Shown here: positions 17,750 to 21,654 of the stretch, piece after piece
Position numbering within the stretch: position 1 is the stretch's first letter
Layout of the letters: the number at the start of each line of letters is the position of its first letter
Assembly: GCA_964501025.1 (NCBI GenBank)
Contig: CAZCRD010000103.1
Span: 3,412-67,411 of the forward strand
Direction of reading: 5' to 3'
DNA from: an uncultured Candidatus Cloacimonadota bacterium
GTDB lineage: Bacteria; Cloacimonadota; Cloacimonadia; Cloacimonadales; Cloacimonadaceae
Length of the DNA: 64,000 bases
Notes under the pieces: model-generated
What the model saw: only the letters and a program-made list of their open reading frames with translations
Database searches by the model: none
What the model was told of the DNA's origin: nothing
Made by a program: the position numbers and the translations under genes

Positions 17750-18091
17750 GAGGAGATAGTGATAAGCTGGATCTCGTATATGATGCTGTGGATAGCAATC
17801 TCACAGCTTCAGTTATGCTATTGGGGATCTCTTTCGAAGTGAGTGAGATCAATCATGAATTAGCTTCTGCTTCCAGCAAAAGCTCAACCCTCTCCCCCTT
17901 TACCAATACGGGATCAATACGGGTCAGATCCGTGTTGGTAGCGTAAACGTACTGTATTGATAAGGGGATGCACACAGCTTTGCAGACAGCTTGCTGAATG
18001 CTGGCGGATAATCTCAAAAACATATTTTTTGATCAATGAATGAGCTGCGCTGGATCATTGAGATACAAAATCTGTGATGACAGGAGAACTT

Positions 18092-18226
18092 ATGTCAAGA
18101 CAACAAGATAGAAACAAAGACAAAACAAAGGAGTATGCCCTGGCAGCGGGGGCTGTATTTATCCGGGTTGAGCTGGAGAAATTCACCATTCAAATAGTCA
18201 AATCCAAGCGAGCAAAACATGTCTGA
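18092..18226 (+). CDS. Candidate 44-aa ORF translationally coupled to the ATP-cone/nuclease gene
   Basis: AGGAG lies 6 nt before the ATG. Sequence MSRQQDRNKDKTKEYALAAGAVFIRVELEKFTIQIVKSKRAKHV. Its stop overlaps the downstream ATG (ATGTCTGA), and the downstream gene has no SD of its own. Confidence 0.4.
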   Translation: MSRQQDRNKDKTKEYALAAGAVFIRVELEKFTIQIVKSKRAKHV

Positions 18227-19085
18227 TAAACAGCACAACAACGAAGTCATCATCCAGAAAGCCTCAGGAAAGACAGAAGCTTTTGATGTACGCAAGCTAA
18301 AAACATCACTCAAAAATGCCGGAGCTAATGAAGATGCCATCTCCGAAGTGGTGAGTGATATTCAGAACTGGGTTTACGATGGAGTCACCACCGCCAAGAT
18401 CTATACTCGTGCCTTTCGCATATTCAGGCAGATAAGCACTGCGGGTGCATTGCTATACAACCTCAAAAAAGCTATACTGGACATGGGACCTACCGGATAT
18501 CCCTTTGAACATTTTGTGGGGGAACTCTTCCGGCGACAAGGCTACGAAGTGGAAGTAGGACTGGTAATGGAAGGAGCATCCGTAACTCACGAAATGGATG
18601 TAATTGCCAAAAAAGGCCGGGAGCAAATCTTGGGTGAGTGCAAATTCTCTCACAAACAAGGGCATAGCATCAGCATTCAGGTGCCCTTATACGTACATTC
18701 TCGGGTAAATGACATTGTGGAAAAACTCAAAGAAGAAAAAGCGAATCAAGATATCAATTTTACTGCCTGGATCTTTACCAATGGACGCTTCTCTGCTGAT
18801 TCCATCGAATATAGCAGATGCAAAGGAATCAAGCTCATGGGCTGGGATCATCCTCAAGGCCATGCTCTGAAAGATCTAATCGAGAGAGAAAGGATGTTCC
18901 CCATCACCATCCTCAGCAAGCTAAGCCTCAAGGATAAGAGTAGACTGATGCAGGATGGCATCGTTACCTGTGCTCAACTATTGGAGCAATCCGGAAAATT
19001 GGGAAACATGGGATTCAGTAAGAAAAAGCAGAATCTGATATTAAACGAGCTTAAAGAGCTGTCACGTAAAAGCATAAGCAAGTGA
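18219..19085 (+). CDS. ATP-cone domain / Mrr-like (PD-(D/E)xK) restriction-endonuclease-fold fusion protein
   Basis: The N-terminus (VIIQKASGKTEAFDVRKLKTSLKNAG...AKIYTRAF) fits the ATP-cone pattern. The centre (FEHFVGELFRRQGYEV...THEMDVIAKKG...LGECKF) fits an Mrr_cat-type D...E.K nuclease core. Confidence 0.7.
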   Translation: MSDKQHNNEVIIQKASGKTEAFDVRKLKTSLKNAGANEDAISEVVSDIQNWVYDGVTTAKIYTRAFRIFRQISTAGALLYNLKKAILDMGPTGYPFEHFVGELFRRQGYEVEVGLVMEGASVTHEMDVIAKKGREQILGECKFSHKQGHSISIQVPLYVHSRVNDIVEKLKEEKANQDINFTAWIFTNGRFSADSIEYSRCKGIKLMGWDHPQGHALKDLIERERMFPITILSKLSLKDKSRLMQDGIVTCAQLLEQSGKLGNMGFSKKKQNLILNELKELSRKSISK

Positions 19086-19092
19086 GGTTGAG

Positions 19093-20865
19093 ATGGATCC
19101 AATTCTGGTATTTGTCACATTGGGCTTGGCCCTGATCATGTTCATCTGGGGAAAGATCCGCTATGACTTTGTAGCGCTTTCCGCCTTGTTTCTACTCGTC
19201 GTTGTGGGGATTATCCCGCCTGAACAAGCATTTGCTGGATTTGCTCATACAGCGGTGATTACTGTGGCCGCAGTGATGATCATCGGAGAAGGCATGCTGA
19301 GCTCCGGTGTAATCGATGTGGTGGCCAAGTATTTGCAAAAAATCGGTGATAGCTTCTTTACGCAGATTCTTGTATTGTGCCTCATTACAGCTCTTGCTTC
19401 CGCTTTCATAAACAATGTAGGTGCCCTGGCAATCATGATGCCGGTGGCAATCAAGCTTTCCCGAAACAGCAACAGATCCCCTTCTGCAATCCTGATGCCT
19501 TTGGCTTTTTCCTCACTCTTGGGCGGTATGACCACCTTGGTTGGAACCCCGCCGAATATCATAATTGCATCTCTAAGACAAGAAGCTTTGGGCAAATCGT
19601 TCAGTATGTTTGACTTTTCACCTGTAGGTCTGCCCCTGGCCGGTGCGGGCATCTTGTTCATGGCAGCTGTGGGCTGGAGATTGGTCCCCTTGCGCAAGGC
19701 CAAGCCGGATGATGAAGATCTGTTTAAGATTGAAGACTTCATCACCGAAGTGCAACTAACCGAAGAAAGTGAGATCATCGGCAAATCAATCCAGGAATTG
19801 AGAGATAGCGAGGATTACGAGATCAATATTTTGAGTCTGGTGCGTAACAAACTGCGCATAAACGTACCCAAAGCCAGCGAAACTCTCCAGGAAGGGGATA
19901 TCATTGTCCTCGAATCAGATTCGGAAAACCTGAAGACATTCCTTGATACAGGTAAAGTAACACTGGTGGGAGATCCCAAATCGGAAGATAAAGAAAAGAC
20001 TTCAGCATCCAGTAAACTCACAATCCGCGAAGTGGTGATGCTGGATAGTTCCCGCTTAATCGGCAAGACAGCTGCCAGCATTTACATGCGGGATCGCTAT
20101 GGCGCTAATCTTTTGGCTATTGCCCGAGCTAACCGGAGAATAGTCAAACGCATCGACCATACCAGGTTTAAGGCCGGTGATGTGTTGCTACTGCAAGGCA
20201 GTGAAGACAGATTGAGTGATAGCATCATCAGAATGGGTTGCCTGCCGCTATCGGATCGGAATATTCGCATCGGTCATCCGCAAAGGATAATCAGTGCTCT
20301 GCTGATCTTTGGTGCTGCCATCACCGCTTTGCTCACAGGTTTTTTGCCGGTGCAGATCGCTTTTTCACTGGCTGCGTTGCTCTTTGTGTTTAGTGGCATT
20401 GTTTCTTTCCGGGAAGTATATGAAAACATCAATTGGCCAATCATCGTGCTCCTGGCAGCCATGATACCCGTGGGAATGGCTCTGGAAAGCTCCGGTGCAG
20501 CAGATATGATAGCATCAAACATTGTAAAACATGGTGCCAATCTGGCTGTTTGGCAGATTATCGGCGGGATCATGCTAATCTCCATGTTGCTCTCAAATGT
20601 GGTGAACAACGCTGCCACTGCAGTACTGATGGCACCGATTGCCTTGAAGATCGCCGGCGGTCTCCAGCTCTCTCCTGATGCCTTTCTGATGGCAATTGCC
20701 ATCGGTGCTTCCTCTGCTTTTCTTACCCCCATCGGGCATCAATCAAACACATTGGTGATGAGCCCCGGAGGATACAAGTTCAGCGATTACTGGCGCTTGG
20801 GACTGCCCATCCAGATCCTCGTTCTCTGTCTGGGAACGCTGGTTATCCTTTCTGTATGGCTTTGA
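19093..20865 (+). CDS. SLC13/DASS-family anion permease with two internal TrkA-C (RCK_C) domains
   Basis: 590 aa with polytopic N- and C-terminal halves. Central soluble region has two TrkA-C-like repeats (GKSIQELR...GDIIVLESD; GKTAASIYMR...GDVLLLQGS). Confidence 0.8.
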   Translation: MDPILVFVTLGLALIMFIWGKIRYDFVALSALFLLVVVGIIPPEQAFAGFAHTAVITVAAVMIIGEGMLSSGVIDVVAKYLQKIGDSFFTQILVLCLITALASAFINNVGALAIMMPVAIKLSRNSNRSPSAILMPLAFSSLLGGMTTLVGTPPNIIIASLRQEALGKSFSMFDFSPVGLPLAGAGILFMAAVGWRLVPLRKAKPDDEDLFKIEDFITEVQLTEESEIIGKSIQELRDSEDYEINILSLVRNKLRINVPKASETLQEGDIIVLESDSENLKTFLDTGKVTLVGDPKSEDKEKTSASSKLTIREVVMLDSSRLIGKTAASIYMRDRYGANLLAIARANRRIVKRIDHTRFKAGDVLLLQGSEDRLSDSIIRMGCLPLSDRNIRIGHPQRIISALLIFGAAITALLTGFLPVQIAFSLAALLFVFSGIVSFREVYENINWPIIVLLAAMIPVGMALESSGAADMIASNIVKHGANLAVWQIIGGIMLISMLLSNVVNNAATAVLMAPIALKIAGGLQLSPDAFLMAIAIGASSAFLTPIGHQSNTLVMSPGGYKFSDYWRLGLPIQILVLCLGTLVILSVWL

Positions 20866-21210: not shown

Positions 21211-21654
21211 TCAATATCTTTTCAGATGGCAACTTTGGCTGTAAGTCTCTCCGGGACGCAGATAGTCAGCCAGCTCAGGATCAAATTCGATCAGGGTATA
21301 ATCCGGATCGTCATAACCGCTGAAGTATTGGTCAAAAAAGAAGCAGCGCTCGGAGGCTTCGGCCTTGAGCGCTGCATTTGTCACAATTTTGGCACTGCCA
21401 CTGAGCCGGATATAGCCGGTGTGACCATCTTCGGTCAGGGGGATACAAATCTCTACCAGTTTGTTGTTCTGAATCTGAGCTACCTTAGAATCTGAGCTAA
21501 AAGTGGCAAAGAAATAGCGCTCATCATACAGAAAAAGCACCACCGGACGCACGCGGGCTTGTTTTTTATCGGATGTGGCCAGATAAACATATTGGTTTTG
21601 CCGGATCCATGCCATTAGTTCTTGCTGCAATTGAGATTCGTTTGTGCGTGCCAT
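21211..21654 (-). CDS. Pyridoxamine 5'-phosphate oxidase-like FMN-binding family protein
   Basis: 147 aa. The YVYLATSDKKQARVRPVVLF pattern is typical of the PNPOx-like split-barrel family. Confidence 0.55.
   Translation of the reverse strand: MARTNESQLQQELMAWIRQNQYVYLATSDKKQARVRPVVLFLYDERYFFATFSSDSKVAQIQNNKLVEICIPLTEDGHTGYIRLSGSAKIVTNAALKAEASERCFFFDQYFSGYDDPDYTLIEFDPELADYLRPGETYSQSCHLKRY

Follow-up and report, generated by a model that had tools for sequence, protein, structure and literature searches.

The window considered here is a stretch of 64,000 nucleotides from an uncultured Candidatus Cloacimonadota bacterium (assembly GCA_964501025.1, contig CAZCRD010000103.1, positions 3,412 to 67,411). 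It contains a gene for a 288-amino-acid (aa) protein in which an ATP-cone is joined to a PD-(D/E)xK nuclease core. The gene is preceded by a 44-aa open reading frame (ORF), whose TGA stop, within ATGTCTGA, lies 8 nt into the nuclease gene, and is followed by a gene for an anion transporter (Table 1). An earlier note on this DNA, made from the sequence alone, had described both ORFs and their overlap, and all are present as claimed. Judged by sequence and predicted structure, the 288-aa protein is an intact member of a very large family that combines an ATP-cone, an AF1548/Mrr-type nuclease core, and a C-terminal helical domain. The 44-aa ORF is, on the alignments given below, the decayed 3' end of a deleted gene for a Ca-type (IIA) P-type ATPase and not a partner protein.

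Table 1. Features of the nuclease locus, with positions in the window
Feature	Position	Strand	Basis
CAGACA-18-GATAAT, a weak sigma-70-like promoter match 5' of the relic ORF	17983-18012	+	Consensus scan only, 9/12 matches
AGGAG Shine-Dalgarno-like sequence, 5 nt before the relic-ORF ATG	18082-18086	+	Read from sequence
44-aa ORF; codons 14-37 read as what is left of a type-IIA P-type ATPase (last transmembrane helix and C-terminus)	18092-18226	+	Alignment to L088 ATPase tail
Gene for ATP-cone/AF1548-type PD-(D/E)xK nuclease/helical DNA-binding-domain protein (domain function putative), 288 aa	18219-19085	+	ORF, Pfam, PDB 1Y88, AlphaFold2 model, Foldseek
Divergent ATP-cone, residues ~11-88, motif K14-A-S-G17...E20.F22...K26-L27...T58...Y62...Y80.LK83	18249-18482	+	Pfam, NrdR/ribonucleotide reductase fold match, profile alignment, conserved residues
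PD-(D/E)xK nuclease core, residues ~93-212, predicted catalytic E97, D127, E140-C-K142	18495-18854	+	Mrr_cat, residues invariant in 109 homologues
C-terminal AF1548-like helical domain, residues ~227-283, putative DNA-binding	18897-19067	+	PF22357, 1Y88 alignment, model
CitMHS/TrkA-C anion-transporter gene, 7 nt downstream of the nuclease gene	19093-20865	+	Pfam

Domains of the 288-aa protein

Mrr_cat (PF04471) matched residues 93-207 at E = 7.3e-7, with 29.8 bits against a Pfam cut-off of 21, and the PDB sequence matched was that of AF1548 from Archaeoglobus fulgidus (1Y88; E = 5e-24, residues 97-281). An AlphaFold2 model was computed from 109 homologues (predicted local distance difference test, pLDDT, 89.3; predicted template modeling score, pTM, 0.72) and compared with the PDB by Foldseek. 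There too 1Y88 ranked first (E = 5e-15, template modeling score 0.85 normalized to the target), followed by the PD-(D/E)xK nucleases MspJI, Can2/Cdn1, the R2 endonuclease, EndoMS (EndoMS/NucS), and Hjc. Residues E97, D127, E140, and K142 are invariant in a set of 21 homologues and in the set of 109 alike, and the equivalent columns are also invariant in a sister clade of the family. With the domain score above its cut-off, the catalytic residues conserved, and the structure predicted, the nuclease reading of the earlier note stands. A RecB-like QxxxY motif can be read in the window's clade (Q154-x3-Y158), but the Q is replaced by K in the sister clade, and the motif was not used.

The earlier note had listed a cone and a nuclease core, correctly, but had missed a third domain as well as the solved relative, 1Y88. 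Residues 227-280 match AF1548-like_C (PF22357) at E = 9e-5, with 22.9 bits against a cut-off of 23.9, and the C-terminal domain forms five helices in the model; from these sequence and model comparisons, we take it to be a DNA-binding domain.

ATP-cones are the adenine-nucleotide sensors of ribonucleotide reductases (RNRs) and of NrdR. In the 288-aa protein, hmmscan matched residues 12-61 to the cone at E = 1e-4 and 23.2 bits against a cut-off of 25.8, over profile positions 3-59 only, and a six-frame Pfam search of the whole genome gave 25.4 bits against the same cut-off; a precomputed match to Pfam PF03477 is present in about half of the homologues. The region (residues 11-70) was modeled at a pLDDT of 82-91. 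Foldseek superimposed the N-terminal domain of the model on the NrdR cone 7p37 with a root-mean-square deviation of 1.9 Å over 69 columns and a probability of 1.00, and it also matched the cones of the E. coli and Aquifex RNRs. A profile search aligned positions 6-81 with residues 2-78 of E. coli NrdA; such searches cover the full cone length of RNRs, but weakly (E ~0.1-0.3).

Within the cone, K14, G17, K26, L27, and Y62 are invariant in the 109 homologues, S16, E20, F22, and T58 are nearly so, and Y80 and K83 are invariant or nearly so, whereas the canonical K-R pair reads K-A (K14-A15) throughout the family. By eye, K14, E20, K26, T58, Y62, and Y80/K83 fall opposite what we take to be K9, E15, K21, T55, H59, and F87/K91 of E. 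coli NrdA. The fusion of a cone to an intact nuclease was thus read rightly in the earlier note, with the qualification that this cone is divergent and scores just below the Pfam cut-off.

The nuclease is not the sole carrier of this form of the cone. In Halalkalibaculum sp. DA3122 (L073, 5846-7719), the gene directly after that for the nuclease encodes a glutaredoxin-like product of 110 aa, and the one after it a 509-aa protein, in which the same K-A-S-G cone (26.6 bits, above the cut-off) is fused to PF10091, "putative glucoamylase". Since the K-A-S-G cone occurs both on the nuclease and on the PF10091 protein, this cone subtype is a mobile sensor module found on different enzymes.

In the window's genome, the assembly of which is 94% complete, the six-frame search matched ATP-cones in NrdD (C19) and in the 288-aa gene only, and it detected no NrdR; the NrdD cone aligns with that of the 288-aa protein over the first 35 residues. 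The lack of an NrdR would fit a view of the 288-aa protein as a nuclease-dead regulator, an NrdR-like nucleotide-sensing repressor whose PD-(D/E)xK and helical domains would serve for DNA binding only, and there is a precedent in NrdR for DNA binding gated by a cone (PMC9110341). However, a dead nuclease is hard to reconcile with four catalytic positions that do not vary in the 109 homologues or in the sister clade, and the gene never adjoins RNR genes in the loci examined; we consider such a regulator very improbable.

The 44-aa ORF and its upstream DNA

The small ORF has no match in Pfam, NCBIfam, or PADLOC. When its peptide was compared by tblastn with 98 loci, there was one match, just 5' of the nuclease gene in L088, which is a 68% identical orthologue from the same genus, and the matched stretch is the end of a long P-type ATPase ORF. 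That ATPase matches Cation_ATPase_C (Pfam) to within 13 residues of its end, is nearest to type IIA Ca-ATPases (NCBIfam), and extends into the nuclease gene, where its stop lies 11 nt in. When the ATPase tail, YPLAAGALVFVIVELEKYITLKII, is aligned with the segment YALAAGA-VFIRVELEKF-TIQIV from the small ORF, 15 of 24 residues are identical, and the two stretches lie at the same distance from the nuclease ATG. The match has an E-value of 0.22 against the whole window. At the nucleotide level, aligning the 159 nt that precede each of the two start codons gave a score of 32 in the same register; shuffled sequences scored 15.1 ± 2.1, and none of 1000 reached 32.

A P-type ATPase is also encoded directly upstream of the nuclease in L012, L014, L016, and L019. 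In four of the five intact loci, the pump stop overlaps the nuclease ATG by 4-17 nt, and the relic overlap in the window, 8 nt, falls within that range. In L014 (Ignavibacteriales), the order ATPase, nuclease, CitMHS transporter is intact, and the transporter is 51% identical to that of the window. Neither a homologue of this ATPase nor any type-II P-type ATPase was found in the window's genome, within the completeness of its assembly, and tblastn found no further ATPase remnants in 17750-18092. The match to the L088 tail, the ATPases upstream elsewhere, the intact order in L014, and the absence of a pump from the genome together lead us to read the 44-aa ORF as a pump relic. The start/stop overlap is then ancestral and inherited, and the ancestral partner of the nuclease was a full-length ion pump. 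The ATPases in L012, L014, L016, and L019 are 69-76% identical to one another despite coming from metagenome-assembled genomes labeled Bacteroidales, Ignavibacteriales, and Rikenellaceae, which suggests that the ATPase-nuclease cassette has spread horizontally.

The earlier note had proposed that the 44-aa ORF and the nuclease form a two-component unit, and had named absence of the ORF from orthologous loci as the observation that would speak against it. Upstream of the orthologues in L081 (81% identical) and in L082 and L085 (71%), gene callers place no small ORF and the ORF listing shows nothing similar; the proposal is abandoned in favor of an ATPase relic. The first 13 codons of the ORF and its Shine-Dalgarno (SD) sequence and ATG are not homologous to the pump, and an Arg now lies within the former transmembrane helix.

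A relic may nonetheless be in use, and the two ideas are compatible, also with the role for the nuclease proposed below. The remnant could have gained an SD-ATG and be translated, serving as a leader or coupling ORF or yielding a micro-protein, with terminating ribosomes restarting at the nuclease ATG; speculatively, its SD-ATG, whether fortuitous or retained, may still bring ribosomes to a nuclease start that has no SD of its own. The AGGAG that the earlier note had read for the small ORF is confirmed and lies 5 nt before its ATG, stop and start overlap by 8 nt, overlap with an upstream ORF is the ancestral state, and the nuclease SD is degenerate here (AAGCGAG) where orthologues have AAGGAG (L081) or AAGGAA (L088). 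The earlier note was correct that the nuclease start has no good SD, but this is not an unusual trait: an SD-like 4-mer precedes 30 of the 42 long ORFs in the window, and the other 12 (29%) do without. Moreover, the 44-aa ORF occurs in no other genome among the 98 loci, the sole match being an ATPase tail, and the Arg in the former helix suggests free decay. A functional leader is on these grounds rather unlikely.

The sigma-70-like match in Table 1 is a possible start of a nuclease-transporter transcript, in a region where the number of such sites is near the shuffled expectation. No leader RNA or riboswitch was found in Rfam at E <= 1, and folding is not unusual (z-score -0.42). Sequences 5' of the gene in the window, L081, L082, and L085 show no convincing alignment; a "CTTGACGGAATCTG" stretch is common to L081 and L085 and is not present in the window. 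At 17904-17923 and 17969-17992, there are two copies of CAATACGGG with 11-nt spacing and, in the 340-nt spacer 5' of the relic, a tandem 12-mer, TGCA(C/G)ACAGCTT; this repeat is the one that the earlier note had treated separately. A 10-nt inverted repeat (17881-17890 and 18165-18174) brackets the region. Within the part of the relic ORF that is homologous to the ATPase tail, there is a terminator-like hairpin at 18137-18153, GCCCTGGCAGCGGGGGC followed by TGTATTTATC, which probably results simply from the codons for PLAAG.

Family distribution and gene neighborhoods

A word-indexed search yielded at least 540 homologues, 45-81% identical over their full length, from Cloacimonadota, Bacteroidales, Ignavibacteriales, Fidelibacterota, and Balneolales, and at least 596 GTDB species genomes have the gene. 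In an exhaustive profile search, 1572 representatives at 50% identity were matched, of which 553 lie below 1e-30; among the 150 best, nearly every one is ~280 aa long and matched end to end. The sister clade, 35% identical and typified by proteins of Pontibacter and Criblamydia, comprises at least 7522 clusters. Databases label family members variously as "restriction endonuclease", "ATP cone domain-containing protein" (RefSeq, sister clade), "ATPase", or "Holliday junction resolvase". The earlier note knew of no characterized member, and our literature search agrees, in that no paper on ATP-cone/nuclease fusions or characterizing any family member was found. The gene is single-copy in the window's genome, and in its phylum it is present in 15 of 151 genomes, all of one family, including 9 of 16 in the genus. 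An orthologue from the same family (L090, G138:C116:665-1513) contains one in-frame TAG and may be a pseudogene or reflect a sequencing error.

In the window's own clade, the gene stands among diverse housekeeping or metabolic genes: Pfam assigned 96 families to 88 immediate upstream neighbors and 111 families to 86 downstream ones. The P-type ATPase is the only recurrent partner, plus CitMHS in three loci; the transporter of the window recurs downstream of the nuclease in L081 (84% identical) and in L014, where the ATPase is intact.

In the sister clade, the gene heads a conserved operon. Full-length matches on plasmids numbered only two among 72,556, at 35-36% identity over 94% of the length, and came from plasmids of Pontibacter actiniarum and Criblamydia sequanensis. 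Common to both plasmids is an operon that encodes, in order, the ATP-cone protein, a metallo-beta-lactamase (MBL)-fold hydrolase, a thymidine-phosphorylase-family protein (~500 aa), and a ribose-phosphate pyrophosphokinase; the Criblamydia cluster adds a P-type ATPase, phosphoketolase, glucan phosphorylase, acetate kinase, and a glucoamylase-family gene. A metagenome scan with a sister-clade profile gave 80 loci; 65 have room on both sides, and 28 have 8-kb flanks left and right. In 47 of the 65, the gene directly adjoins, on the same strand, a beta-CASP MBL gene or a P-type ATPase, and among the 28 loci with such flanks, MBL was found in 22, the P-type ATPase in 21, an archaeal-type phosphorylase in 17, phosphoribosyl pyrophosphate synthetase (Prs) in 16, and PPK2 in nine. 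NCBIfam names these partners as a beta-CASP ribonuclease-like protein, Prs of subfamily PRK07199, and PPK2, and the operon phosphorylase is of the archaeal type, exceeding the cut-off of ARCH_P_rylase, and lies near AMP phosphorylase. In L105, L108, L110, and other sister loci, there is often an archaeal-type (type II) glyceraldehyde-3-phosphate dehydrogenase upstream, an unannotated 229-aa protein, and PPK2 between Prs and the P-type ATPase.

The trio of MBL, Prs, and phosphorylase is induced by microoxia in Bradyrhizobium diazoefficiens (PMC6515984). The proteins induced in that organism also include a member of the pyridoxamine-5'-phosphate-oxidase family (PMC6515984), and a gene of this family lies two genes downstream in the window (21211-21654, minus strand); the shared family is probably a coincidence.

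The earlier note saw in a nucleotide-pool-sensing nuclease the logic of an anti-phage effector. Such a cone would sense a phage-induced shift in deoxynucleoside triphosphates (dNTPs) or ATP and free the nuclease against phage or host DNA, making the protein a solitary Mrr-like (type IV-like) or abortive-infection enzyme. The patchy occurrence in the phylum and genus would suit this, as would a stand-alone nuclease with a restriction-enzyme fold whose nearest structural neighbors past 1Y88 include MspJI, Can2, and Cdn1; PADLOC gave a match for the 288-aa protein as well, although only at the domain level, to the Mrr-like nuclease of ZorD (E = 4e-5). However, no homologue occurs in 50,697 phage records or in IMG/VR, and the plasmid matches amount to the two just described. 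PADLOC found no defense enrichment among the 88 upstream neighbors, and these, like the 86 downstream ones, are heterogeneous housekeeping and metabolic genes without a sign of defense. No methylase is present, and Pfam detected no Mrr_N or other modification-reading domain. The architecture is uniform, with 45-80% identity across phyla and invariant catalytic and cone residues, and lacks the diversification typical of conflict genes, and in the sister clade the gene belongs to an operon of nucleotide catabolism and an ion pump. An anti-phage function is therefore judged improbable.

The same neighborhoods bear on whether the protein could be a structure-specific repair or recombination endonuclease, in which a PD-(D/E)xK core with a helical (helix-hairpin-helix-like) domain, as in XPF/Hef/Mus81 and Hjc, would act on forks or junctions and the cone would tie that processing to the supply of dATP or ATP. 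Nuclease plus helical domain is the architecture shared with AF1548, the fold matches include Hjc and EndoMS/NucS, some sources apply the "Holliday junction resolvase" label to members, and DnaN, PIF1 helicase, or PriA is occasionally a neighbor. Yet these neighbors are few (DnaN in two and PIF1 in four of 86 downstream genes, and PriA at one locus), what is mainly conserved around the sister-clade genes is nucleotide catabolism with an ion pump rather than repair, and the gene is absent from 90% of the genomes in the window's phylum. A repair role thus seems unlikely.

Proposed role and known relatives

The observations are best explained jointly by an adenine-nucleotide-gated endonuclease of nucleic-acid turnover, represented here by a solitary remnant of an ATPase-nuclease-transporter cassette in which the 44-aa ORF is the relic of the pump, a reading that we favor, though by no wide measure. 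ATP, dATP, or another adenine nucleotide would bind to the cone and gate the nuclease: the oligomeric state or domain packing would change, and a sequence-unspecific endonuclease would be switched on or off in consequence. Because of the sister-clade operon, we infer, by guilt by association only, that the enzyme may open nucleic acid for salvage or energy when energy or oxygen is low, acting as the regulated first step in the turnover of nucleic acids and the salvage of nucleotides and not in restriction or defense. The window's genome would descend from one with the ATPase, nuclease, and CitMHS-transporter cassette, the pump having since been lost.

Several points weigh against this interpretation. 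The cone departs from the canonical form, with Ala in place of the second basic residue in the K-R motif, and its Pfam scores lie just under the cut-off. The operon evidence comes from the sister clade, at ~35% identity, and not from the window's clade, where none of 98 loci has an MBL, phosphorylase, or Prs neighbor and only five have the ATPase. The window's genome itself is without the beta-CASP MBL, phosphoketolase, glucoamylase-family, and P-type ATPase genes of the sister module, and elsewhere has only generic homologues of thymidine phosphorylase, Prs, acetate kinase, and glucan phosphorylase. The patchy spread in the phylum would also fit an accessory or defense gene, and a biochemical report for any family member was not found in the literature. 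As for the relic, the match is short, and it is position and the nucleotide shuffle test that lend it weight.

A broader proposal can be put forward tentatively, and we would not be surprised to see it fail. Among proteins with an ATP-cone, the ATP-cone/AF1548 nucleases could constitute a third functional class next to RNRs and NrdR, namely endonucleases gated by energy charge or dATP that would open cellular nucleic acid for salvage, with the beta-CASP exonuclease, the AMP-type phosphorylase, Prs, and PPK2 acting afterward. This class would be coupled genetically, and often translationally, to a Ca-type P-type ATPase, and the window would be a snapshot of that coupling being dismantled. If true, a cone-gated nuclease would take a textbook allosteric module past dNTP synthesis and could bring to light a regulated route into nucleic-acid catabolism, as yet undescribed, that thousands of bacteria would have. 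The recurrent and often overlapping pairing of nuclease and P-type ATPase is in any case unexplained and testable. The locus itself is ordinary, one more solitary family member without an operon, and its own contribution is the pump relic beside a nuclease gene of a known but uncharacterized family. It also carries a caution, in that start/stop overlaps with "small basic ORFs" can be the tails of deleted neighbor genes.

With the cones of RNRs and NrdR (PF03477), the 288-aa protein shares the fold and the K..G..E.F...KL motif, but its cone is fused to a nuclease and not to a reductase or a Zn-ribbon. It differs from NrdR in particular in that the cone starts at residue ~11, with no Zn-ribbon match, and in having no RNR neighbors in the loci examined. 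AF1548 (1Y88) has the same PD-(D/E)xK core with D/E/K and the same C-terminal helical domain, but in the alignment its chain begins at the nuclease core, without an ATP-cone. It is a structural-genomics protein for which our literature search found only the prediction, made in the GOS paper, that it is a restriction endonuclease, with D38/E51/K53 as its predicted catalytic residues (PMC1821046). The catalytic domain family PF04471 is common to the 288-aa protein and to Mrr and type IV restriction endonucleases, from which the former differs in having an ATP-cone at its N-terminus in place of an Mrr_N winged helix or other modification reader (Pfam), in its lack of a defense context, and in belonging to a highly conserved and uniform family. 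The sister-clade proteins (Pontibacter actiniarum WP_237151220 and Criblamydia sequanensis WP_176454803) have the same three-domain architecture and the same recurrent link to a P-type ATPase; there, however, the gene heads an operon, whereas the gene in the window retains only the relic of a pump and a CitMHS transporter.

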